Shown here piece by piece: positions 2,476-64,000 of a DNA stretch of 64,000 nt (the stretch's first letter is position 1; each line of letters opens with the position of its first letter). The translations under genes and the position numbers were made by a program. The notes under the pieces are model-generated. The model saw only the letters and a list, made by a program, of their open reading frames with translations, was not told where the DNA came from and searched no databases. The DNA is from a virus (lineage: Duplodnaviria > Heunggongvirae > Uroviricota > Caudoviricetes): the IMG/VR virus record IMGVR_UViG_3300032315_001309, positions 12,305 to 76,304 of that record; one strand, written 5' to 3'.

Positions 2476-3483
2476 ATGAAACCTAAAATTATTATCTGGG
2501 GATTCCCTTTAGATACTCATACACACTCTTATATACATGCTGCTTGGTATAAGACTTTCAAATTTCTTGGATATGAGACCTATTGGTTTCATGATGGAAA
2601 TTACCCAGAAAATTTTGATTATAAAAATTGCCTTTTTATATCAGAAGAATATGCTGCTAGTAAAATTCCCATCGAGGCTTCTTCGACTTATTTCATACAC
2701 AACGCAATCAATCCATCAAAATATTTGGATAAAGGGGCTCGGTTAATTGATATACGTTTTAATGTATATGGAATTAATGATGTTAATTACAAGCTGAAGG
2801 TAAATAAGGCGGAATTAGTTAAGCTTGATGATGTAACTTTTTACAACCCTAAAGCAGATGATAGCGTCTTAGCTGACCAATGGGAGAAGGGAATCTCTGG
2901 TTATGAAGCAATACATCTAACTTGGGCAACTGATTTACTACCACATGAATTTTATTATGATGATGCATTGATGAAAAGGCATCAAGAATACTATCATGTT
3001 GGATCTATTATTGGTAGTAACATCAAAGAAATGCAGAAGGTGGTTTCGGCATTACAAAGTTTAAATATTCCATTTGTACATATTGACCCATGGAGAAATC
3101 CAGTTTCTTTTGAGGATGGTAAAAGATATATGCAATTGTCTAGGCTTTCACTTGATGTACGAGGAACCGAAACCAAGGAAATCGTAAATGGTAAACCTGG
3201 AAATGGTGGTGATCACAAAAATATCGGATATATTCCATGTAGGACTTTTAAGGCAATTAGTTATGGTAGAATAACCGGAACTAACTCAAAAGCCGTAAAG
3301 GATGTTTTCGGTGATTACGTAATTTATAATGATGATGAATATCAATTGGTTTATGATATGAACGAAGCAGAAAAAAGAGACAAGGTTCAATTAGTTATCG
3401 AATCCATGAGATGGGTACAGGAAAATCATACCTATATTAATAGAGTTAATTGTCTTATGCAAGTATATAATCAGGAGATTTGA
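2476..3483 (+). CDS. hypothetical protein, possible glycosyltransferase
   Basis: 335-aa ORF with ATG start. The N-terminal Rossmann-like beta strand is MKPKIIIWGFP. Confidence 0.4.
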   Translation: MKPKIIIWGFPLDTHTHSYIHAAWYKTFKFLGYETYWFHDGNYPENFDYKNCLFISEEYAASKIPIEASSTYFIHNAINPSKYLDKGARLIDIRFNVYGINDVNYKLKVNKAELVKLDDVTFYNPKADDSVLADQWEKGISGYEAIHLTWATDLLPHEFYYDDALMKRHQEYYHVGSIIGSNIKEMQKVVSALQSLNIPFVHIDPWRNPVSFEDGKRYMQLSRLSLDVRGTETKEIVNGKPGNGGDHKNIGYIPCRTFKAISYGRITGTNSKAVKDVFGDYVIYNDDEYQLVYDMNEAEKRDKVQLVIESMRWVQENHTYINRVNCLMQVYNQEI

Positions 3484-12177: not shown

Positions 12178-12503
12178 TGGGAAAACATTACTTACTAGAC
12201 CTATATGGTTGCGAATTTGAAGTATTAGATAATCTAGAATTTCTACTACAACTTCTAGTAGATTCGGCTCTTCTTTGTGGTGCAACTATTTTGAATAAGT
12301 GCTATCATAAATTTGAGCCACAAGGGGTTACAATTATTCTCTTATTGGCCGAGTCACATATTTCAATACATACTGTACCTGAGAAGGGAGAAGCATATGT
12401 TGATGTGTATACTTGTAGTATAGTAGATCCAGAAATTTCATGTCTTAAAATTATTGATGAAATAAAACCATCACGACATAATTTAAGATTATTTGATAGG
12501 TAG
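12177..12503 (+). CDS. speD: S-adenosylmethionine decarboxylase proenzyme (small prokaryotic class)
   Basis: HYLLDLYGC...LAESHISIHTVPE...YVDVYTC is the AdoMetDC signature, including the ES|S self-processing site (ESHIS). Confidence 0.75.
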   Translation: MGKHYLLDLYGCEFEVLDNLEFLLQLLVDSALLCGATILNKCYHKFEPQGVTIILLLAESHISIHTVPEKGEAYVDVYTCSIVDPEISCLKIIDEIKPSRHNLRLFDR

Positions 12504-56695: not shown

Positions 56696-58084
56696 ATGAA
56701 CAGCAACATTATTCTCAATACTGACTCTTACAAATACAGTCAGTTCAATCAATATCCACCAAATACAGAAATCGTATCTTCCTACATTGAAAGTAGGGGG
56801 GCTAAAGGTGGATTCTATGACAGAACCGTATTCTTCGGTTTGCAGATGTTTCTGAAAGAATATCTTTCCAAACCTATTACTCTAGATCAAATCAACGAAG
56901 CAGAAGAAATCGTTAATGCTCACGGACTTCCATTTAATCGTGCAGGATGGGAATACATCCTCAAACAATATGGTGGATTTCTTCCTCTATGCATTCGTGC
57001 AGTAAAAGAAGGTTCCATTATTCCTACTAAAAATCTTCTGGTTTCTGTAAAAAATACTGATCCAAATTGCGCATGGTTGACTTCTTTTATGGAGACAGCT
57101 ATTCTTCGTGCTGTATGGTATCCTACCACCGTAGCCACATATTCGTGGTACATGAAGCAACTGATTCTACATTCTCTGAAAAGAAATGGTACTCCAGAAT
57201 CTATTGATTTCAAACTACATGACTTCGGATTCCGTGGCGTATCTTCTAAGGAATCTGCTGGTATTGGTGGACTAGCTCACCTAGTCAACTTTCAAGGCAC
57301 TGATACCATGGAGGCCCTACTGTATGGTAGGAGGTACTACAATGCCCCTATGGCAGGTTTTAGCATCCCAGCCACAGAACACAGTACAATCACCTCCTGG
57401 GGGCGTATGGGGGAGGCTGATGCATATGAAAACTTCCTGAATAAGTATGCCCAAGAAGGAAAGATCATCGCATGTGTTAGTGATAGCTACAACATCTATG
57501 ATGCATGTTCTAAGATCTGGGGAGAGCAACTGAAGCAGAAAGTTATTAGTTCTGGTGCTACTCTTGTGATTCGTCCCGATAGTGGATATCCACCAGAAGT
57601 TGTTATGGAATGCCTACACATTCTTGATGCTAAGTTCGGACACACTATCAACAATAAAGGATACAAAGTTCTGAATAATGTTCGTCTTATTCAGGGTGAC
57701 GGAGTTTCTTATGAAATTGTTGGTAACATTCTAAGCAGAATGGATACTGCCGGATTCTCTGCTGATAATATTGCATTCGGTCAAGGCGGCGGACTACTAC
57801 AGGCACATGATAGGGATACACTGAAGTTTGCTATGAAGTGCTCTGCTATCCTTGTGGATGGTGAATGGCGTGATGTGTACAAGCAACCTATCACTGATAT
57901 GGGTAAAGAATCCAAGAAAGGATTGATTGACCTTTACAAAATCGATGGTGAGTATGTCACTAAACGTATTGATGATCATGAAAACCCAGCGAGCGAAACT
58001 CAAATGGTTTTTTATAATGGTATTATGTATAACAGCACCAACTTAGAGACGGTTCGCAAACTGGCACAGTCTATGAGCGTCTGA
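56696..58084 (+). CDS. nadV: nicotinamide phosphoribosyltransferase (NAMPT/NadV)
   Basis: NTDSYKYSQF, HDFGFRGVSS, GTDTMEAL and STIPATEHST are characteristic NAMPT motifs. 462 aa. Confidence 0.8.
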   Translation: MNSNIILNTDSYKYSQFNQYPPNTEIVSSYIESRGAKGGFYDRTVFFGLQMFLKEYLSKPITLDQINEAEEIVNAHGLPFNRAGWEYILKQYGGFLPLCIRAVKEGSIIPTKNLLVSVKNTDPNCAWLTSFMETAILRAVWYPTTVATYSWYMKQLILHSLKRNGTPESIDFKLHDFGFRGVSSKESAGIGGLAHLVNFQGTDTMEALLYGRRYYNAPMAGFSIPATEHSTITSWGRMGEADAYENFLNKYAQEGKIIACVSDSYNIYDACSKIWGEQLKQKVISSGATLVIRPDSGYPPEVVMECLHILDAKFGHTINNKGYKVLNNVRLIQGDGVSYEIVGNILSRMDTAGFSADNIAFGQGGGLLQAHDRDTLKFAMKCSAILVDGEWRDVYKQPITDMGKESKKGLIDLYKIDGEYVTKRIDDHENPASETQMVFYNGIMYNSTNLETVRKLAQSMSV

Positions 58085-58302
58085 CTCTGAGAGTGCTACT
58101 ATATATTAGTAGTTGAGAGATTTTTCTCAAATCACCCAAAAATTTTAAATACTAAATAAATACAGCTAATCAATTAATTATTATGGCCAATTATTACGAC
58201 TGGGATCTCATTCAAAAAAATGATTGGGATTTTATTAAAAAGAATGATTGGGAGATACTTTCTCTGGGAATGTAAGTTATATTTACATAACCAATACCGA
58301 AG

Positions 58303-58336
58303 AGAGTTCAATCCCACAAAGATTGAACTCTTTTTT
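58303..58336 (+). terminator. rho-independent terminator (11-bp stem AGAGTTCAATC/GATTGAACTCT + T6)
   Basis: Perfect inverted repeat with a 7-nt loop and a TTTTTT run, upstream of the tRNA island. Confidence 0.6.
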
Positions 58337-58451
58337 ATGATTAGCTTATGACACTATCTCAACTGTCCATTACTACAACATCCTCTTCAAAAATCGGGTA
58401 TTGTATAGAAGTGATTGAGAAATCAACAGAACCTTGACAATTTAAACTTTT

Positions 58452-58524
58452 GGGTTAGTAGCATAGTGGCTAATGCACCTGGCTTTTAACCAGTATATCG
58501 TGAGTTCGAGTCTCACCTAACCCA
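58452..58524 (+). tRNA. tRNA-Lys (anticodon TTT)
   Basis: Manual fold: 7-bp acceptor GGGTTAG/CTAACCC, D-arm GCAT/ATGC, anticodon loop CTTTTAA, T-arm GTGAG-TTCGAGT-CTCAC. Confidence 0.65.
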
Positions 58525-58555
58525 TTAGGACACTATTATCTAAAATGTCCTATTT

Positions 58556-58626
58556 GTCTGGTTCGTCTAATGGTAAGACTGGAGCTTCCAAACCTTTTGA
58601 CGTGGGTTCGATTCCTACACCAGGCG
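58556..58626 (+). tRNA. tRNA, anticodon unresolved (possibly CCA, Trp)
   Basis: Acceptor GTCTGGT/ACCAGGC, D-arm GTCT/AGAC, T-arm GTGGG-TTCGATT-CCTAC. The anticodon stem could not be folded cleanly by hand. Confidence 0.4.
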
Positions 58627-58653
58627 TTAGGTTAAATATACCTAGATTTATTT

Positions 58654-58740
58654 GGGGAAATGGCAACTATCGGCAAGTGTTGCGGCGCTCTGTAAAAGCG
58701 TTACTTTGAACCGTTGGGGGTTCGACTCCCTCTTTCCTCA
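58654..58740 (+). tRNA. tRNA-Tyr (GTA), type II with long variable arm
   Basis: Acceptor GGGGAAA/TTTCCTC, anticodon arm GCGCT-CTGTAAA-AGCGT, T-arm GGGGG-TTCGACT-CCCTC. 87 nt. Confidence 0.5.
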
Positions 58741-58769
58741 TTAGTCATAAATATGACTAGTATATAATT

Positions 58770-58843
58770 GGTCCTGTAGCATAGTGGCCTAATGCACTAC
58801 CCTGTCACGGTAGATTACGGCGGTTCAAATCCGCTCAGGATCG
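58770..58843 (+). tRNA. tRNA-Asp (GTC)
   Basis: Acceptor GGTCCTG/CAGGATC, perfect anticodon stem CTACC/GGTAG with loop CTGTCAC, T-arm GGCGG-TTCAAAT-CCGCT. Confidence 0.7.
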
Positions 58844-58844
58844 T

Positions 58845-58870
58845 ATCTTGCTTCAATAGCAAGATTTTTA
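58845..58870 (+). terminator. hairpin terminator ATCTTGC-TTCAATA-GCAAGAT + TTTT
   Basis: Perfect 7-bp inverted repeat and a T run, directly after tRNA-Asp. Confidence 0.5.
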
Positions 58871-58897
58871 ACTTTATTATCTGAACACTGGAGAATC

Positions 58898-59155
58898 ATG
58901 GGAACAAATTCTAATTGTTGCTGCTATGAAGGAAAAGCTAATCACCCAGATGATGAAGCAGTAGATCGTTTTGCTACTGCTATGAAAGAAAAACTCGCCA
59001 AGAAACGGGAGCAAGGGTGTAGCGGGTGGCAAACTGCTTCGGCTGATTTGCTAAATCAGTTGCTCCAAGAACACCTAAGCAAAGGTGATCCTGTCGATAT
59101 TGCAAATTTTGCCATGATGCTGCATCAGAATGGCCAATCAATCGTAATAAAATGA
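58898..59155 (+). CDS. hypothetical protein
   Basis: 85-aa ORF with a GGAG ribosome-binding site, between tRNA clusters. GC content is higher than the average. Confidence 0.4.
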   Translation: MGTNSNCCCYEGKANHPDDEAVDRFATAMKEKLAKKREQGCSGWQTASADLLNQLLQEHLSKGDPVDIANFAMMLHQNGQSIVIK

Positions 59156-59355
59156 TTACTTTTGAAAGAAAAATGAGGTTGTATGAGAAACTTCATGTAG
59201 GTTGGTGGTGGATCGGGCAAATCTTTGACGAGTGGCGTTGGACCATGACTCATGATGATGGTGACTTCTTTAACTATCTTCAGTCAGATTATGTTGCTTA
59301 CGAGCAAGATATGTATTATGAAGTGAAAGATGGTAAGAAGATTACCACTAAATAA
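59152..59355 (+). CDS. hypothetical protein
   Basis: 67-aa ORF overlapping the previous stop. Confidence 0.35.
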   Translation: MITFERKMRLYEKLHVGWWWIGQIFDEWRWTMTHDDGDFFNYLQSDYVAYEQDMYYEVKDGKKITTK

Positions 59356-59362
59356 AACACAA

Positions 59363-59414
59363 TGGGATGTAGTTCAGCGGTAGAACGTCCTTCATGACGG
59401 TAAACTGTATTCAA
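59363..59414 (+). pseudogene. degenerate tRNA-like 5' fragment (acceptor + D-arm GTTC-AGCGGTA-GAAC, CAT-containing loop)
   Basis: Clear tRNA-type D-arm and a TTCATGA loop. No matching T-arm or 3' acceptor follows, and it abuts the start of tRNA-Asn. Confidence 0.25.
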
Positions 59415-59487
59415 TCCCCATGACTCAGCAGGCGACGAGGGCTGACTGTTAATCAGTTTTTGCTAGGATCGATACCTAGATGGGGAG
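59415..59487 (+). tRNA. tRNA-Asn (GTT)
   Basis: Acceptor TCCCCAT/ATGGGGA (U1-A72), anticodon arm GCTGA-CTGTTAA-TCAGT, T-arm CTAGG-ATCGATA-CCTAG. Confidence 0.5.
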
Positions 59488-59515
59488 TTGTCTGAATAGA
59501 CATTAAACTATTTGA

Positions 59516-59588
59516 GGGAGCATAGCTCAGCGGCTAGAGCAAACTCTTGATAAGGGTTAGGTCACAGGTTCAAATCCTGTTGTTCCCA
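59516..59588 (+). tRNA. tRNA-Ile (GAT)
   Basis: Acceptor GGGAGCA/TGTTCCC, D-arm GCTC/GAGC, anticodon arm AACTC-TTGATAA-GGGTT, T-arm ACAGG-TTCAAAT-CCTGT. Confidence 0.7.
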
Positions 59589-59610
59589 TTCCGCTGAATA
59601 AGTGGTGTAT

Positions 59611-59687
59611 TGCGGAAAAGTGTATTGGTTGCACACTGGGCTCATAACCCAGAGGTAGTCTCAAACGGTTCGATTCCTACTTCCGCC
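59611..59687 (+). tRNA. tRNA-Met-like (CAT) with atypical T-arm, possibly a pseudogene
   Basis: Acceptor (T)GCGGAA/TTCCGCC, D-arm GTGT/GCAC, perfect anticodon stem CTGGG/CCCAG with loop CTCATAA. The T-stem pairs poorly (AACGG-TTCGATT-CCTAC). Confidence 0.35.
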
Positions 59688-59756
59688 ATTGGGAAGCAAT
59701 TCTAGATTATCCCTTCCGGTGCACCCTACCGGGTCTGAATAGATGAAGTGGGTCCA

Positions 59757-59830
59757 GGGGAATTAGCTCAGATGTGTAGAGCACTTGGTTGAAGCCCAAG
59801 GTGTCGTCGGTTCGATTCCGACATTTCCCA
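59757..59830 (+). tRNA. tRNA-Phe (GAA)
   Basis: Acceptor GGGGAAT/ATTTCCC, anticodon arm CTTGG-TTGAAGC-CCAAG, T-arm GTCGG-TTCGATT-CCGAC. Confidence 0.7.
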
Positions 59831-59868
59831 TACGAGTCACTAAATAATAGTGACTCGATTCCTTTGTT

Positions 59869-60387
59869 ATGAAACATCTTCATCATATTATCCCAAAACA
59901 CGCAGGAGGAACTGACGAACCCTCCAATCTTATTGAACTTACTGTAGAAGAACATGCGAGGGAACATTACCTCTTGTGGAACCAATATGGTAGGTGGCAA
60001 GATAAAGTTGCGTGGAAGGGTTTATACGAAATGATAGATAAACAAGATGTTATTGCTAACATCAGGAATGAAATGTGGCAATCTTCTAGTCATAGAGAAA
60101 TGTTTTCTCACATAATGAAGCAAGTCTGGAAAAGAGAAGATTATCGTCAACGACAGTTGCAAATGTCAAATGTTTCTCAGCCGATTGCTACTTTAGCATC
60201 AACTTCACCCGAATCCAGACAAAAGAGAAAGAAGACTTTACAAGAAATCAATCATCAACAGGGTTCTAAAAACTCACAGTTTGGTAAGATGTGGATCACA
60301 AACGAAACTCATTCTTATAGGATAAATAAGAATGAGTCTATCCCCGAAGGTTACCGAAAGGGTAGAGTCATTAAAAGTAAGACCTAA
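59869..60387 (+). mobile_element. HNH homing endonuclease gene inside the tRNA island
   Basis: The N-terminal HHIIPKHAGGTDEPSNLIELTVEEHAREH is an HNH motif. The C-terminal GSKNSQFGKMWITNETHSYRI...PEGYRKGR is a NUMOD-like DNA-binding motif. A perfect 9-bp hairpin (GAGTCACTA/TAGTGACTC) sits just upstream. Confidence 0.65.
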
Positions 60388-60474
60388 GTGATTTTATAAA
60401 GCATTGGGGTGGAAATAACACACCACATTAAAACCGGGTTAGAAGTTTGTAGGTTTTCATAAACCTACCATTAT

Positions 60475-60548
60475 GGGGTCACATGTACCAAGGCTGGCGA
60501 GACTGCTTTGCAAGCAGACTGTGTAGAGTTCGATTCTCTATGATTCCA
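60475..60548 (+). tRNA. tRNA-Ala (TGC)
   Basis: Acceptor GGGGTCA/TGATTCC with the G3:U70 Ala identity pair, anticodon arm ACTGC-TTTGCAA-GCAGA, T-arm TAGAG-TTCGATT-CTCTA. The D-arm is poorly paired. Confidence 0.5.
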
Positions 60549-60570
60549 TTGATACTTAAAGTATCATTTT

Positions 60571-60641
60571 GGTCCTGTCGTCCCGTGGTTAAGACGCTGC
60601 CCTTTCAAGGCGGAACAAGAGTTCAATTCTCTTCTGGACTA
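60571..60641 (+). tRNA. tRNA-Glu (TTC)
   Basis: Acceptor GGTCCTG/CTGGACT, anticodon arm CTGCC-CTTTCAA-GGCGG, short variable loop, T-arm AAGAG-TTCAATT-CTCTT. Confidence 0.55.
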
Positions 60642-60649
60642 TTTCTCAT

Positions 60650-60750
60650 TTATGAGAAACCTGTTGAATACTCGGGCCAGTTGGACGGGAGTTAATGTTA
60701 AAGTGCTCAATGACTTTAATTCTTCAAGAGTTCGACTCTCTTGTGGTCCA
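60650..60750 (+). ncRNA. tRNA-like element of unresolved structure (T-arm AAGAG-TTCGACT-CTCTT present; possible atypical or pseudo-tRNA)
   Basis: Canonical T-arm and a possible CCA-proximal GTGGTCCA are present. No standard acceptor or anticodon arms could be built. A 6-bp inverted repeat TTAAAG/CTTTAA lies upstream. Confidence 0.2.
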
Positions 60751-60886
60751 TAATTTATAATCATTTGTAATTAAAATGTAACCAAAATGAGGAAAAAACT
60801 TGTTGGTTGGAATTTTGATTTTAGACTGTATGACTCTAGGCATTGGGATAATAAAAACAATTGTTGGCACTCACAGTAGGTAAGCA

Positions 60887-61180
60887 ATGAAAGGCACAGC
60901 ATATACAAAACTTTATAGTTATAATCCCATTCACGAACCCATAAGTGGGTTACCTTGGCATCTAGCCTTTGGTAAAATGCGAAGAGAAGCAATCAAGAAA
61001 GAGTTTTTGAATAATCCACGTCTTCAACAATGGGGCCTCCGTATTGATAGCTCATGGTGTCCACAATTAAAAAATGATCCAGAGTTAAGGCAACTTGTGA
61101 AATCTGGATTTCTGAAACAAGTAAGAAGATTCGATAAATCTTATTTGGTATTGAACGATGAATGTGTATCGACATATTAA
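60887..61180 (+). CDS. hypothetical protein
   Basis: 97-aa ORF. The overlapping minus-strand ORFs are judged spurious. Confidence 0.3.
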   Translation: MKGTAYTKLYSYNPIHEPISGLPWHLAFGKMRREAIKKEFLNNPRLQQWGLRIDSSWCPQLKNDPELRQLVKSGFLKQVRRFDKSYLVLNDECVSTY

Positions 61181-61418
61181 AAACGGTCACCTGTATTGGG
61201 TCTATCGTGATAGATATCATCAAATAAAGGTAGAACCTTTGTATTATGGTACGCCAAAGTTGACTTGTACTCAGAATCCAAGAAAGCTCACTCACTATAG
61301 TGGGCTTGAGAGTTTTACATTAACATATACAGAATAGATTGGTCCAATCTAAAAACTGACACACCAAGCAGGCTCAAGCCTGAATTCCTGATATGATTTT
61401 ATCAAATGAAATTAAATC

Positions 61419-61619
61419 ATGCGTTGGATTTGGCCCCCGAAAGAACATAAAGATTCCGAATTGGATGATCTTGTTAATAATGGGAAACTTAAAGAGTATT
61501 CTTATGTTTCTCTTGAAGATTACGAAAAACTCGTTTTGACTCTTCCATGCGGAACTAAAATTTCTATTGATTCTGAACCTGGAATTGAATGTAGTTCTCT
61601 TTCTGTTCGTGTATCCTAA
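61419..61619 (+). CDS. hypothetical protein
   Basis: 66-aa ORF. Confidence 0.3.
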   Translation: MRWIWPPKEHKDSELDDLVNNGKLKEYSYVSLEDYEKLVLTLPCGTKISIDSEPGIECSSLSVRVS

Positions 61620-61826
61620 ATGGAAAATAAATCAGTTGAAATTGATATGGAATTCATTCGAGAATTCACTGGGCTCTTTCAGGAAGTAAATTGTTCGCTA
61701 TTCAGGAAACCCAATCTACAAGAAAGAGTAGATGAATTTGTCGAAAAGTATTCTCATGTAATTAACAGAGAAGGTTATGAAAATCCCGAACCCAAACAAA
61801 ATCATGCAACTTACTGTCAACTATAA
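61620..61826 (+). CDS. hypothetical protein
   Basis: 68-aa ORF, contiguous with the previous one. Confidence 0.3.
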   Translation: MENKSVEIDMEFIREFTGLFQEVNCSLFRKPNLQERVDEFVEKYSHVINREGYENPEPKQNHATYCQL

Positions 61827-62007
61827 TTCACACACACAAATGTTTGTCTGGACCATATATGATGGCCCAGACGGAATTGATGAGGGTTGCGGCGATGCTC
61901 GTACTCTTGGTGAAGTGTTTGAACAAGTTACTATCTGGAGGCATAACAACGCCAAACAGTATTTCTGATAAATCGGTACTCAATACAAAAACCAACTACA
62001 AAATCTC

Positions 62008-62382
62008 ATGAAAAATAAAAAACTCAAAAGAATCAAAGCCTGGGTAAAAGCTCTCAAGTCTGGTAAGTATAAACAAACCACTGAACAACTATATGATGGA
62101 AAAGGATTCTGTTGTCTTGGTGTGGCCACGGACCTATATCTGAAAGAAAAGGGGAAGGAATGGCAAAAAGAAACTTCACGTTCTTATGGTGTTGATAATG
62201 AGTTTGATGAGATCGAAACCTCTGAACTTACTACAAGAATCGCTTCGTGGTATGGATTGAAATTAAGGTCACCAGAAGTTTCTCACAAAGGTCTCGGCAG
62301 AACATTGATGTATCTTAATGATAGTGAGAAACTTTCTTTCAAAAAGATTGCTAAGTTGATCAAAAAAACTTATCTAAAGTAA
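62008..62382 (+). CDS. hypothetical basic protein
   Basis: 124 aa, Lys-rich at both ends. Confidence 0.35.
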   Translation: MKNKKLKRIKAWVKALKSGKYKQTTEQLYDGKGFCCLGVATDLYLKEKGKEWQKETSRSYGVDNEFDEIETSELTTRIASWYGLKLRSPEVSHKGLGRTLMYLNDSEKLSFKKIAKLIKKTYLK

Positions 62383-62547
62383 AAAACATGAAAGATTATG
62401 ATTTGGAACGATTGATCGAGTCTGGTGATATCACTAAGTATGTGTATGAAGATGATGAGTACACTGAAAATGTCAAGATCACGTTTCCTTCTGGTTTGGT
62501 GTTATCTATTAGTTCTTCTGCAACTACCTATGGTGGTAGCGGTTTGA

Positions 62548-62913
62548 TTGTTGAAGTTGGTGAATGAAATGACTGAAAAAGATCTACTATTGCGACTAGA
62601 ACATATCTGTCAGGTATATCGTGACATTAACGACAAGTATTGGGAAGAAAATGATCTTACTTTAGAAGAAGTGAATCAATGTCTAGTCTACATTTCTGGT
62701 AAACTTCAAAATAATATATTCAATCGAGAAGATCCTGAACAGTGGCAAGAAGTTAAATATATTCTCTATGGACGACTAGAGAAGAAATCGCCCCAGACAA
62801 CGTTTGAACTATCTTTGGGACTTCCTGAGGGTGTTGGTACTGTTGTTCTGGATGAAATAGAATATGGTCGCATGTACCTAGATGAAAATTATCAAATTGG
62901 ATTAAAAAAATGA
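62548..62913 (+). CDS. hypothetical protein
   Basis: 121-aa ORF. Confidence 0.35.
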   Translation: MLKLVNEMTEKDLLLRLEHICQVYRDINDKYWEENDLTLEEVNQCLVYISGKLQNNIFNREDPEQWQEVKYILYGRLEKKSPQTTFELSLGLPEGVGTVVLDEIEYGRMYLDENYQIGLKK

Positions 62914-63110
62914 ACATAAAACAACTTAAAGAACTATTAAATGAACACCCTGATGATATGCGACTAGTTCGACGTGGGTATGAGGGTGGTTATTCTGATA
63001 TAGATGATTTAGTGGTGATTGGTTTGAAACTCAACAAAAATACTGCATGGTTTTACGGCCCACATGAAATTTCTACGGATGAAGACGAATTTGCACTTCT
63101 TATTGATTAA
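62910..63110 (+). CDS. hypothetical protein
   Basis: 66 aa, overlapping start (ATGA). Confidence 0.3.
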   Translation: MNIKQLKELLNEHPDDMRLVRRGYEGGYSDIDDLVVIGLKLNKNTAWFYGPHEISTDEDEFALLID

Positions 63111-63113
63111 AAA

Positions 63114-63446
63114 ATGAGCTACTACATTCTTGTTGTTGATCGTGACGGTGACGGGCTTGAAATGCTTACAGAAAATAAATATATGAATGTGTGTCTGTTT
63201 TTCACTAAAGAAGAACTTGATGCCGGAATCGTTGGTGCAATCAAGTATCTTAAAGATCAATTAGAATTTGGTCAAAATTACTCTGACATTGATTCAATGT
63301 TGAATGTTTTTGAATGTGTGAGTAGTATTGGTGATATCAGTACTGTAAATTACATCAGGAACATTCGGGAATCAATTGATGAGGAAGAAAAACAAAAAGA
63401 CAAACGACGAAAACTTTATTTGGAACTTCAACGGGAATTTGGCTAA
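63114..63446 (+). CDS. hypothetical protein
   Basis: 110-aa ORF. Confidence 0.35.
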   Translation: MSYYILVVDRDGDGLEMLTENKYMNVCLFFTKEELDAGIVGAIKYLKDQLEFGQNYSDIDSMLNVFECVSSIGDISTVNYIRNIRESIDEEEKQKDKRRKLYLELQREFG

Positions 63447-63480
63447 TAACCAAACTTCAAAAATTTCACACTAAATTATT

Positions 63481-63678
63481 ATGCCTAAACTATCTGACGC
63501 CGATAAAATCGGGGCAGTGATTTTCTCCACTGTTGTAACTCTCATTCTTATTATGATCGCCCACCAAAATATCATGAATAAACGACAACATGATTCTTTT
63601 GTTTTGTGCTTGAAATCGGGGGTTCCTAGTGAGTATGCTGATAATTCAATTGCATGTTCTTCTATTCTTCGTAATTAA
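63481..63678 (+). CDS. hypothetical small membrane protein
   Basis: Central TM helix VIFSTVVTLILIMIA. Confidence 0.3.
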   Translation: MPKLSDADKIGAVIFSTVVTLILIMIAHQNIMNKRQHDSFVLCLKSGVPSEYADNSIACSSILRN

Positions 63679-63683
63679 ATATA

Positions 63684-63908
63684 ATGACTCCTACCGAAGC
63701 CTCAGTTAAATTAGTAGAAATCATCGAAAAGCACATTGACTCTAAACCAACTGAATTGTATTTAAAAATTATGGTTCTTATGTGTGAATATGGTGATTCT
63801 TGTTATTTGGTAGCAAAACAAAAATATTATAAAGATGGTTATGGCGATGGACATTTTGATGGTTATCAAGAAGGATATGGTTCAGGCTGTAGTGATTCCG
63901 CGCCATAA
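63684..63908 (+). CDS. hypothetical protein
   Basis: 74-aa ORF. Confidence 0.3.
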   Translation: MTPTEASVKLVEIIEKHIDSKPTELYLKIMVLMCEYGDSCYLVAKQKYYKDGYGDGHFDGYQEGYGSGCSDSAP

Positions 63909-63918
63909 ATAAAATAAA

Positions 63919-63990
63919 GGCAGTATAGCTGAGTGGTAAAGCGCATCATTCATACCGATGTGATCATGAGTTCGATCCTCATTGCTGCCA
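63919..63990 (+). tRNA. tRNA-Met/Ile2 (CAT)
   Basis: Acceptor GGCAGTA/TGCTGCC, anticodon arm CATCA-TTCATAC-CGATG, T-arm ATGAG-TTCGATC-CTCAT. Confidence 0.65.
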
Positions 63991-64000
63991 TGTGGTCGTA

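Follow-up and report, generated by a model that had tools for sequence, protein, structure and literature searches.

How did an endonuclease gene come to lie in the middle of a cyanophage array of transfer RNA (tRNA) genes, and is it to blame for the irregular tRNA-like sequences around it? These questions are raised by a 64,000-nucleotide (nt) stretch, hereafter the window, of the viral record IMGVR_UViG_3300032315_001309 (positions 12,305 to 76,304), for which a first-pass annotation had proposed that the insertion of an HNH endonuclease gene, and the subsequent repair, eroded or duplicated the neighbouring tRNA genes. The window comes from a T4-like freshwater cyanophage and, wherever the sequences can be aligned in a DNA search, it is 96-98% identical to Synechococcus phages B3 and B23, freshwater Synechococcus myoviruses of the Kyanoviridae with genomes of ~244 kilobases (kb), which are its closest neighbours. 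These two annotated phages, together with the more distant relative S-CRM01, were used as controls throughout. We consider it likely that the gene in question is an intact, selected, free-standing homing endonuclease gene, predicted as such from its sequence, that resides in the tRNA array of this phage.

The gene (59869-60387, plus strand) encodes a protein of 172 amino acids (aa) and lies, as the first-pass annotation had it, between the genes for tRNA-Phe and tRNA-Ala. Both of these are complete, the open reading frame (ORF) starting 38 nt after the former and ending 87 nt before the latter, outside any intron or intein. An intron-encoded endonuclease was considered and rejected, as the region 58000-64000 yielded no match to an intron family at E-values up to 10. 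The earlier assignment to the NUMOD-type HNH enzymes also holds: the N-terminus matches the Pfam family HNH (PF01844; 21.9 bits, residues 3-24, from profile position 15), the protein matches PHROG 655, annotated as "homing endonuclease" (E 1.3e-13), and NUMOD3 (PF07460) is recorded for several of the 1147 relatives retrieved by a protein search. The catalytic His/Asn/His set is conserved in 66 homologues, among which N20, H29 and H33 do not vary and H5 and H6 hardly do. The AF2 model (pLDDT 95.4) begins with a beta-beta-alpha unit (strands 2-6 and 21-25, followed by a helix comprising residues 26-40), continues with a long helical middle part and ends with two beta hairpins. Foldseek superposes it locally on Cas8-HNH domains with a root-mean-square deviation of 0.7 A over 41 columns and 32-34% identity; it returned no significant match for the whole protein, and a search of PDB sequences gave only weak matches to the HNH motif. 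The more distant relatives in IMG/VR match the N-terminal domain only, and an exact look-up of the protein retrieved only the same haplotype. Exact look-up of the product of an upstream 67-aa ORF gave the same result; its homologues are marine cyanophage proteins with at most 70% identity, whose context is uninformative.

The domain composition of the protein is composite. Residues 1 to ~40 correspond to the HNH (His-Me) nuclease, and residues ~65-169 to a DNA-binding domain of the SegB type: residues 65-169 align with residues 119-220 of T4 SegB with 37% identity over 107 residues (pairwise E 5e-18). Over the whole length, the relatives from cultured phages are the T4-type Mob proteins (25-31% identity), e.g. 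MobE of phage RB3 (25% identity, E 4e-13). Judging from these alignments, the protein joins an HNH head of the Mob type to a DNA-binding body of the SegB type. The GIY-YIG catalytic domain is absent from it, its N-terminus being HNH; since the head is HNH rather than GIY-YIG, we do not file the gene as a member of the SegB family.

Both parental types are known from T-even phages. SegB is a GIY-YIG homing endonuclease encoded within the T4 tRNA cluster; its 27-bp (base pair) recognition site has the T-arm sequence GGTTCRANTCC as its core, and cleavage falls at the 3' ends of tRNA genes. In crosses with T2L, which, like RB1 and RB3, is devoid of segB and has different neighbouring tRNA genes, the inheritance of segB approaches 100% (PMC2330249). 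The cyanophage gene resembles segB not only in the homologous C-terminal domain, but also in its niche inside a tRNA array ~40 nt after the 3' end of a tRNA gene, and in that relatives without the gene differ in the neighbouring tRNA genes. It differs in being carried by a cyanophage and in the HNH (His-Me) head, which could alter how DNA is cut (nick or double-strand break); its cleavage activity and homing would be predictions from sequence. With the Mob proteins (MobE of RB3/T4 and MobD; PMC2790892) it shares the motif HHI(I/V)PK..GG.D...NL.EL...EH..H, which aligns at the N-terminus, and the last C-terminal motif G..WI.N......I.....IP.G...GR; both are, moreover, free-standing genes between host-independent genes. 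MobE, however, is encoded between nrdA and nrdB and not among tRNAs, and the central and C-terminal DNA-binding part of the Mob proteins aligns with that of the cyanophage protein only with long gaps, the latter being far closer to SegB. The closest known system in terms of function is SegB, while by its head the gene belongs with the Mob-like HNH homing endonucleases. A further likeness is to other HNH-type endonuclease genes in or next to tRNA arrays, including those of T5, which have been suggested to help the arrays spread. Homing endonucleases are known from the tRNA arrays of phage T5 as well as from T4 (SegB), and the present locus offers a tidy example of domain shuffling among them: it adds a cyanophage case in which a SegB-type domain, which binds tRNA genes, is joined to a different nuclease head, HNH. 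Endonuclease genes are well documented in phage and cyanobacterial tRNA arrays in general (PMC2330249, PMC13096335, PMC8421152).

The genomic niche of the family is uniform. We surveyed the window and 10 further loci with homologues 50-85% identical, and at 11 of 11 the gene lies within a tRNA array and starts ~10-52 nt behind a tRNA gene (for comparison, T4 segB begins 42 nt after tRNA-Ile). The preceding tRNAs are Phe (twice), Asp (twice), Ser-GGA, Met, Ile, Leu and Gly, and one is cut by the contig end. The family appears to be confined to the 3' ends of tRNA genes, as would suit an enzyme with a binding site in the T-arm and a cleavage site where the tRNA gene ends. A perfect copy of the SegB core motif GGTTCRANTCC is present in six tRNAs upstream of the gene (Trp, Tyr, Asp, Ile, the tRNA with the CAT anticodon, and Phe; 58605-59819), while the three T-arms downstream of it (Ala, Glu, and a tRNA-derived element discussed below as element X; 60526-60741) read GAGTTC.A.TCT, with two differences from that motif. 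Between tRNA-Phe and the ORF there is a 10-bp hairpin followed by a T-rich tract (59833-59857, plus strand), a terminator-like site that forms the 5' leader of the cassette and probably acts as a terminator or attenuator of expression. At the locus L006 an equivalent hairpin is built of different stem bases, and among the loci with homologues a short leader, often with a hairpin and ending in ...TTCCTTTGTTATG, travels with the ORF; no such hairpin is present in the Phe-Ala spacer of S-CRM01 or of the contig L034. As a side observation, one locus (L033, 2348-2929) carries, directly after tRNA-Phe, a full-length GIY-YIG SegB homologue with the same C-terminal module as the HNH protein of the window. 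The two genes, one with an HNH and the other with a GIY-YIG head on a SegB domain and both following tRNA-Phe, constitute a natural pair for dissecting the contributions of the binding domain and the catalytic head.

Comparison with relatives that have no such gene shows what its presence entails. The HNH gene is absent from B3 and B23, yet the flanks are conserved: 418 of 420 positions to the left (59341-59760) and 72 of 74 to the right (60542-60615) are identical between the window and B3. Between them lies a block of 781 nt (59761-60541, plus strand; delimited by pairwise alignment and BLAST segments) that comprises tRNA-Phe, the hairpin, the HNH gene, a spacer and a tRNA-Ala of noncanonical structure, in place of which B3 has 62 nt of a single, canonical tRNA-Ala. 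Homology to B3 breaks off after the first GGGG and resumes at GATTCCA, i.e. within the first 4 and the last 7 nt of tRNA genes. S-CRM01 and L034 present a third arrangement, with tRNA-Phe, a spacer of 37-38 nt and a canonical tRNA-Ala, without the HNH gene. In L006, a near relative of L034 (their tRNA-Phe genes are 98.7% identical), the gene is inserted exactly between tRNA-Phe and the spacer, and the tRNA-Ala is again the odd one. Thus, in both pairs of close relatives (the window and B3/B23; L006 and L034) the HNH gene and the odd tRNA-Ala go together. Of the loci in the window and L006 only tRNA-Phe with the HNH gene (83.9% identity) and the odd tRNA-Ala (87.8%) can be aligned. This pattern fits a unit that moves between genomes with a flanking tRNA allele, either as its cargo or as its protection. 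A search of metagenomes with the spacer upstream of tRNA-Phe returned a single low-complexity junk contig, and the same pattern in IMG/VR returned S-CRM01 only.

By analogy with SegB, the following course of events can be proposed. In a co-infecting genome that has no cassette, the SegB-type domain would bind a tRNA gene at its T-arm or 3' region, and the HNH head would nick or cut near the 3' end of the bound gene. Recombinational repair from the HNH-bearing genome would then copy the cassette, i.e. the hairpin leader with the ORF, to the position just after the tRNA, and flanking markers could be co-copied with it, tRNA-Phe on the upstream side and a different allele of tRNA-Ala on the downstream side. 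As has been proposed for segB and mobE (PMC2330249), the hairpin upstream probably serves to hold expression down. The domain homology, the purifying selection, the presence or absence of the gene between conserved flanks and its constant position after a tRNA gene are observed, whereas the site of cleavage, the type of the cut and homing itself we infer from homology and position.

Several points weigh against the reading of the gene as a homing endonuclease. The Pfam score barely exceeds the cut-off of the HNH family (21.9 vs 21.4 bits), and the E-values of the Foldseek superpositions are not significant, because the HNH domain is short. The CxxC zinc pairs of many HNH enzymes are missing: the protein begins with MKHLHHII, and in place of the second pair it has EEHAREH. 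Such pairs occur in many but not all HNH enzymes and do not define the superfamily. We considered an N-terminal truncation and rejected it, as all homologues begin at the same MKH.HHI position; the form without CxxC is therefore the form of this family. The presumptive target, the T-arm motif or the 3' end of a tRNA gene, we infer from the homology of the binding domain and from the position of the gene. Only two contrasts between genomes with and without the gene are available at this site, and few close relatives are represented in databases. The cassette is no more similar between the window and L006 (84%) than the tRNA-Phe genes are, hence there is no sign of recent transfer.

Finally, the gene could have been co-opted for a role other than homing. 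It might no longer be selfish and might now serve, e.g., to raise the number or variety of tRNA genes in the face of host defences that cleave tRNAs, as shown for SegB in T6. In favour of this, the two proteins have a DNA-binding domain and a niche in common, tRNA-Tyr amplification driven by SegB permits escape from Septu (PMC13096335), and the cyanophage gene is under strong purifying selection, as deduced from the ratio of nonsynonymous to synonymous substitution rates of 0.136 in comparison with its 85%-identical orthologue in L006. An active selfish element, however, should be under purifying selection just as much, the window shows no tandem amplification of the block, and the presence or absence of the gene among near relatives fits mobility. 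We regard co-option as improbable. SegB was reported in 2026 to help phages escape tRNA-cleaving defences.

Returning to the homing endonuclease gene and its surroundings, we asked which of the irregular tRNA-like sequences could be ascribed to it. ARAGORN identifies in the array tRNA-Lys, -Trp, -Tyr, -Asp, -Ile, -Phe and -Glu, with a further tRNA-Met at 63919. The Rfam tRNA model (RF00005, with a gathering cut-off of 29 bits) adds three weaker matches, namely the tRNA with the CAT anticodon (33.9 bits), tRNA-Asn(GUU) (30.8 bits) and tRNA-Ala(UGC) (20.0 bits). The canonical members nearest to the HNH gene, all on the plus strand, are tRNA-Ile(GAU) (59516-59588; ARAGORN, Rfam 67.7 bits), tRNA-Phe(GAA) (59757-59830; ARAGORN and Rfam), which S-CRM01 and L006 have but B3 and B23 do not, and tRNA-Glu(UUC) (60571-60641; ARAGORN and Rfam), whose acceptor strand pairs at 6 of 7 positions with its own 3' end.

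Four elements outside the swapped block are atypical, and three of them, described by the first-pass annotation, are real and lie where it placed them. The first is a tRNA-derived fragment (59364-59414, plus strand), composed of an acceptor-like 5' strand, a D-arm (59370-59386) and a 4-bp/6-nt hairpin, with no T-arm; its 3' side overlaps the 5' acceptor strand of the adjoining tRNA-Asn. The D-arm, TAGTTCAGCGGTAGAAC, is perfectly canonical and is the sole match to the consensus in the 64 kb, where none is expected by chance; it is identical at 18 of 18 positions to the D-arms of phage tRNA-Asn and tRNA-Gly, and at 20 of 21 to that of tRNA-Met. The fragment nevertheless has no match to the Rfam tRNA model even if searched alone. 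A single split or intron-bearing tRNA made of the fragment and tRNA-Asn was rejected, as it is unsupported by any fold or model. The tRNA-Asn(GUU) itself (59415-59487, plus strand) has a D-stem with 3 of 4 pairs formed and the T-loop AUCGAUA; it is missed by ARAGORN and is annotated as a pseudo-tRNA in B3 and B23. The third element, an initiator-like tRNA(CAU) (59611-59688, plus strand), shows, on reading by hand, the initiator hallmarks of GGG/CCC at the base of the anticodon stem and a U1 x C72 mismatch. The defect of its T-stem consists in 9 extra nucleotides (59659-59667) in the 5' strand, with three non-standard T-stem pairs flagged, in a T-arm that is otherwise perfect (GUAG[UCUCAAACG]G UUCGAUU CCUAC). 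No exact homologue of the sequence with the insertion was retrieved from IMG/VR. The fourth, element X (60674-60750, plus strand), is a 77-nt tRNA-derived gene or pseudogene with a perfect T-arm and 6 of 7 acceptor pairs, in which a 7-bp stem with an 8-nt loop occupies the place of the anticodon arm and no D-arm can be recognized. It does not match the Rfam tRNA model, and its minimum free energy fold is rod-like (-22.5 kcal/mol, vs -15.9 kcal/mol for a cloverleaf-like fold). A fold with a UUA anticodon was rejected by hand, as it leaves no variable loop and only 3 of 5 stem pairs form, and searches of IMG/VR with three patterns returned either nothing or chance matches in non-tRNA context. 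The expectation that a tRNA finder would not fold these elements as normal tRNAs thus stands for the fragment and element X, and marginally gives way for the CAT tRNA and tRNA-Asn (ARAGORN, Rfam).

The explanation offered for these defects by the first-pass annotation has a certain appeal: all of them lie within 500 nt on either side of the HNH gene, and cleavage inside tRNA genes, with rearrangements as a consequence, is known for homing endonucleases of tRNA arrays (PMC2330249; PMC13096335). Moreover, in L006 a second, unrelated HNH ORF occupies the place of a tRNA-Ile of S-CRM01, of which only the 3' half is left. The controls, however, speak against it. In B3 and B23, which have no HNH gene, the same defects are found: in B3 the fragment is present with one mismatch and tRNA-Asn is identical in sequence, and the CAT tRNA, with its 9-nt insertion, is identical in both phages, where it is annotated as tRNA-Met of 78 nt. 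None of the four elements lies within 59761-60541. As the fragment, tRNA-Asn and the CAT tRNA are the same in genomes without the HNH gene and lie outside the swapped block, they were not made by its insertion, and the comparison suggests that they are older features of the lineage rather than by-products of the event. Element X likewise predates the difference between the window and B3, as it pairs with its own 3' end at 6 of 7 positions while the B3 arrangement is a mismatched chimera with 4 of 7 (see below). We therefore regard it as very unlikely that the insertion of this HNH gene and the ensuing repair generated the fragment, the T-stem defect of the CAT tRNA and element X. What the comparison with HNH-less relatives does support is that a swap of the block with tRNA-Ala goes with the gene: the sole HNH-linked change is the canonical tRNA-Ala of B3 vs tRNA-Phe, the HNH gene and a tRNA-Ala with an odd D-arm in the window. 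Array erosion seems to run independently of the nearest endonuclease.

The second HNH ORF of L006 merits a separate description. The segment 2741-3150 of that locus corresponds to the place of the second tRNA-Ile of S-CRM01 and includes an unrelated HNH ORF (2780-3112; CxxC...HH...CxxCH), behind which a tRNA is preserved only from its anticodon loop to the 3' end (ATAACCGATAGACCAGAGTTCAACTCTCTGCGTTCCTA); a 10-nt direct repeat, ATAACCGATA, flanks the ORF. Here the disruption of a tRNA gene by an endonuclease gene is more evident.

The relationship between tRNA-Glu and element X provides a glimpse of how the array changes. The T-arms and 3' acceptor strands of the two form a pair of 27-nt direct repeats, 81% identical and spaced by 109 nt (60616-60642 and 60725-60751, plus strand; repeat family D4). 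The tRNA-Glu of B3 corresponds to that of the window up to the variable loop, and from there on to the T-arm and acceptor strand of element X; the 3' 26 nt of the latter are identical to the 3' end of B3 tRNA-Glu. In the window, both tRNA-Glu and element X pair with their own 3' ends at 6 of 7 acceptor positions, vs 4 of 7 in the B3 chimera, hence the window retains the older state with two genes, and the B3/B23 line has likely undergone a 109-nt deletion between the 27-nt T-arm repeats. The interpretation of element X as a diverged copy of tRNA-Glu finds only the T-arm and acceptor in its favour, as only these align with Glu tRNAs. Element X is probably an old tandem partner of tRNA-Glu that has been decaying and has been half deleted in the relatives. 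The absence of tRNA-Phe from B3 fits a deletion between the similar 5' ends of tRNA-Phe and tRNA-Ala.

Could endonucleases have contributed to these deletions in the longer run? In such a scenario, repeated cuts over the history of the lineage, by any copy of an endonuclease, followed by annealing repair between similar tRNAs, would have eroded the array, including the deletions of tRNA-Phe and of Glu/X in B3/B23 and the loss of two tRNA-Ser genes in the window. Both deletions specific to B3 end in short direct repeats of adjacent tRNA genes (GGGG..TTAGCTCA at the 5' ends in one case, the 27-nt T-arm repeat in the other) and both are within 1 kb of the HNH site; the HNH family has always been found in tRNA arrays, and breaks induced by SegB are known to be resolved by homologous recombination into changes of copy number (PMC13096335). 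Deletion from repeat to repeat, however, also results from replication slippage or ordinary recombination, for which no endonuclease is needed, and the claim is a historical one. We regard this scenario as possible, with the odds somewhat against it.

Alternatively, element X and the CAT tRNA could be functional noncanonical tRNAs, with X acting e.g. as a reader with an 8-nt anticodon loop. Failure of a detector does not imply a dead tRNA, as the odd tRNA-Ala discussed below demonstrates, element X does retain its T-arm and acceptor, and the CAT tRNA keeps the initiator hallmarks and exceeds the Rfam cut-off. In contrast to the tRNA-Ala class, however, X and the CAT-tRNA insertion have no homologues in IMG/VR; B3 and B23 remain viable despite the deletion of two thirds of X, whose rod-like fold is favoured by 6.6 kcal/mol; and we know of no precedent for a 9-nt bulge in the T-stem of a working bacterial tRNA. 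We therefore hold a functional role to be rather improbable; by their sequences, element X and the fragment, and probably also the CAT tRNA, look like decaying genes.

The tRNA-Ala(UGC) of the window (60475-60548, plus strand; delineated by hand) presents a different picture. It is missed by ARAGORN and its Rfam score is below the cut-off; its D-region, CAUGUACCAAGGCUGGCGAG, is reduced to a mini hairpin CCA/UGG and its anticodon stem is extended to 7 bp, with G3:U70 and A73 retained. The odd D-region is found also in an annotated tRNA-Ala of Pseudomonas phage VCM (CATGTACCAAGGCTGGCGAG), and a pattern search detected it in at least 119 IMG/VR contigs (L039-L157); the class is represented also at L004, 1512-1587. 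The matches listed comprise 56 distinct tRNA-Ala(UGC), each of which retains G3:U70 and A73, and 27 distinct tRNA-Trp(CCA), which invariably have G73; for the majority of these members 15-17 of 17 stem pairs form. The consensus of the D-region is CATGTNCCAAGG(N0-3)TGGCGAG, with a mini D-hairpin of 3-4 bp that lengthens where U residues are inserted. The constancy of this region is partly due to its use as the search pattern, which is not the case for the diversity elsewhere in the molecule. In an alignment of 49 members 98% of the cells in paired columns are paired and 17 of 22 pairs show compensatory changes, with a covariation score of 0.764 vs 0.184 for shuffled sequences and 0.10-0.17 for slid partners. 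RNAalifold yields the same fold (a 7-bp acceptor, a 6-nt connector, the CCA/UGG mini hairpin, a 7-bp anticodon stem and a normal T-arm), and the tRNA-Ala of the window folds likewise by energy alone (RNAfold). The odd tRNA-Ala is thus not degenerate but belongs to a conserved noncanonical class of phage tRNA-Ala and tRNA-Trp, and RF00005 clearly under-scores a real class of tRNAs, one that passes a covariation test. ARAGORN detects 65 of 121 copies among the matches listed. Odd-looking phage tRNAs cannot safely be read as debris, as the one in the window belongs to a large conserved class missed by standard finders about half of the time.

A search of one genome per species, covering 185,579 species, found 69 occurrences of the motif, spread over many phyla and mostly on contigs of metagenome-assembled genomes (L164-L232). 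Given this rarity in comparison with at least 119 viral contigs, the class is phage-linked. We found no description of it in the literature searched, which does not prove it undescribed. Atypical animal mitochondrial tRNAs provide the nearest structural likeness, in that they too combine a reduced D-stem and a lengthened anticodon stem with a retained acceptor, T-arm and G18-G19. The class differs from them in being phage-encoded, in sharing one fixed D-region between Ala and Trp, and in occurring in phages of many host phyla, and there is no evolutionary link between the two. No close relative of the HNH gene was found beside the class members among those listed from IMG/VR, where a few loci show only weak matches to its C-terminal domain.

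Why does the odd allele accompany the HNH gene in the window and in L006? The most attractive of the rival explanations holds that it is an immunity allele, the canonical tRNA-Ala gene being the preferred target of the enzyme. In accord with this, the odd allele is present in both genomes that carry the gene at this site, while a canonical tRNA-Ala is next to, or in place of, tRNA-Phe in five of the five genomes that do not (B3, B23, S-CRM01, L034 and L038); also, the canonical alleles of B3 and S-CRM01 read GGTTCGA(T/G)TCC, which matches the SegB core motif, vs GAGTTCGATTCTC in the alleles of the window and L006, which differs from it at two positions. The two contrasts, however, could stem from a single old linkage; phages without such an HNH gene nearby commonly have the odd allele, and many T-arms of its class match the SegB motif; members of the HNH family at other sites adjoin ordinary tRNAs; and the recognition site might already be split by insertion right after tRNA-Phe, which would render an immunity allele unnecessary. 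On balance, immunity appears doubtful to us. Slightly more plausible, and still tentative, is a broader proposal: the class may represent an undescribed, phage-specific tRNA architecture (a D-region CAUGUNCCAAGG(N0-3)UGGCGAG of 19-22 nt and a 7-bp anticodon stem, in tRNA-Ala(UGC) and tRNA-Trp(CCA)) that is kept because its altered D-region allows escape from an agent directed at tRNAs or tRNA genes of the host type, e.g. a tRNA-cleaving defence or a homing endonuclease, and that here moves with the HNH gene and replaces the canonical allele. We regard the noncanonical tRNA-Ala/Trp class as the most interesting lead of this analysis.

Apart from these main subjects, the surroundings of the array show several features. 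The array lies just downstream of genes for salvage of nicotinamide adenine dinucleotide: NAMPT (56696-58084), with NMNAT/NUDIX and NADAR genes further upstream, directly precedes it, as is also the case in B3 and B23. ARAGORN calls a tRNA-Tyr(GUA) of 89 nt at 58653-58741, for which Rfam gives only a weak match to the tRNA-Sec model (21 bits) and which is not annotated in B3 and B23 though its sequence is conserved there. Almost every spacer between tRNAs contains a short hairpin (59490-59503, 59590-59606, 59730-59745, 60448-60467, 60549-60569 and 60642-60659), and in several of them the motif CTGAATA(G/A) is found, which is present also in S-CRM01 (TCTGAATAGATAAAG); these hairpins and motifs may be processing signals of the array transcript.

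The tRNA array is in flux in all lines compared. A 55-aa ORF (gp61) and two tRNA-Ser genes of B3 and B23 are missing from the window (60790-60886, vs L001 4513-5009), in the whole 64 kb of which ARAGORN finds no tRNA-Ser; S-CRM01 likewise has two tRNA-Ser genes at the equivalent place. An 85-aa ORF (58898-59155) replaces the 39-aa gp54 of B3 (window 58880-59150, vs L001 3583-3699), and between tRNA-Lys and tRNA-Trp B3 has ~95 additional nt (window 58545, vs L001 3146-3242).

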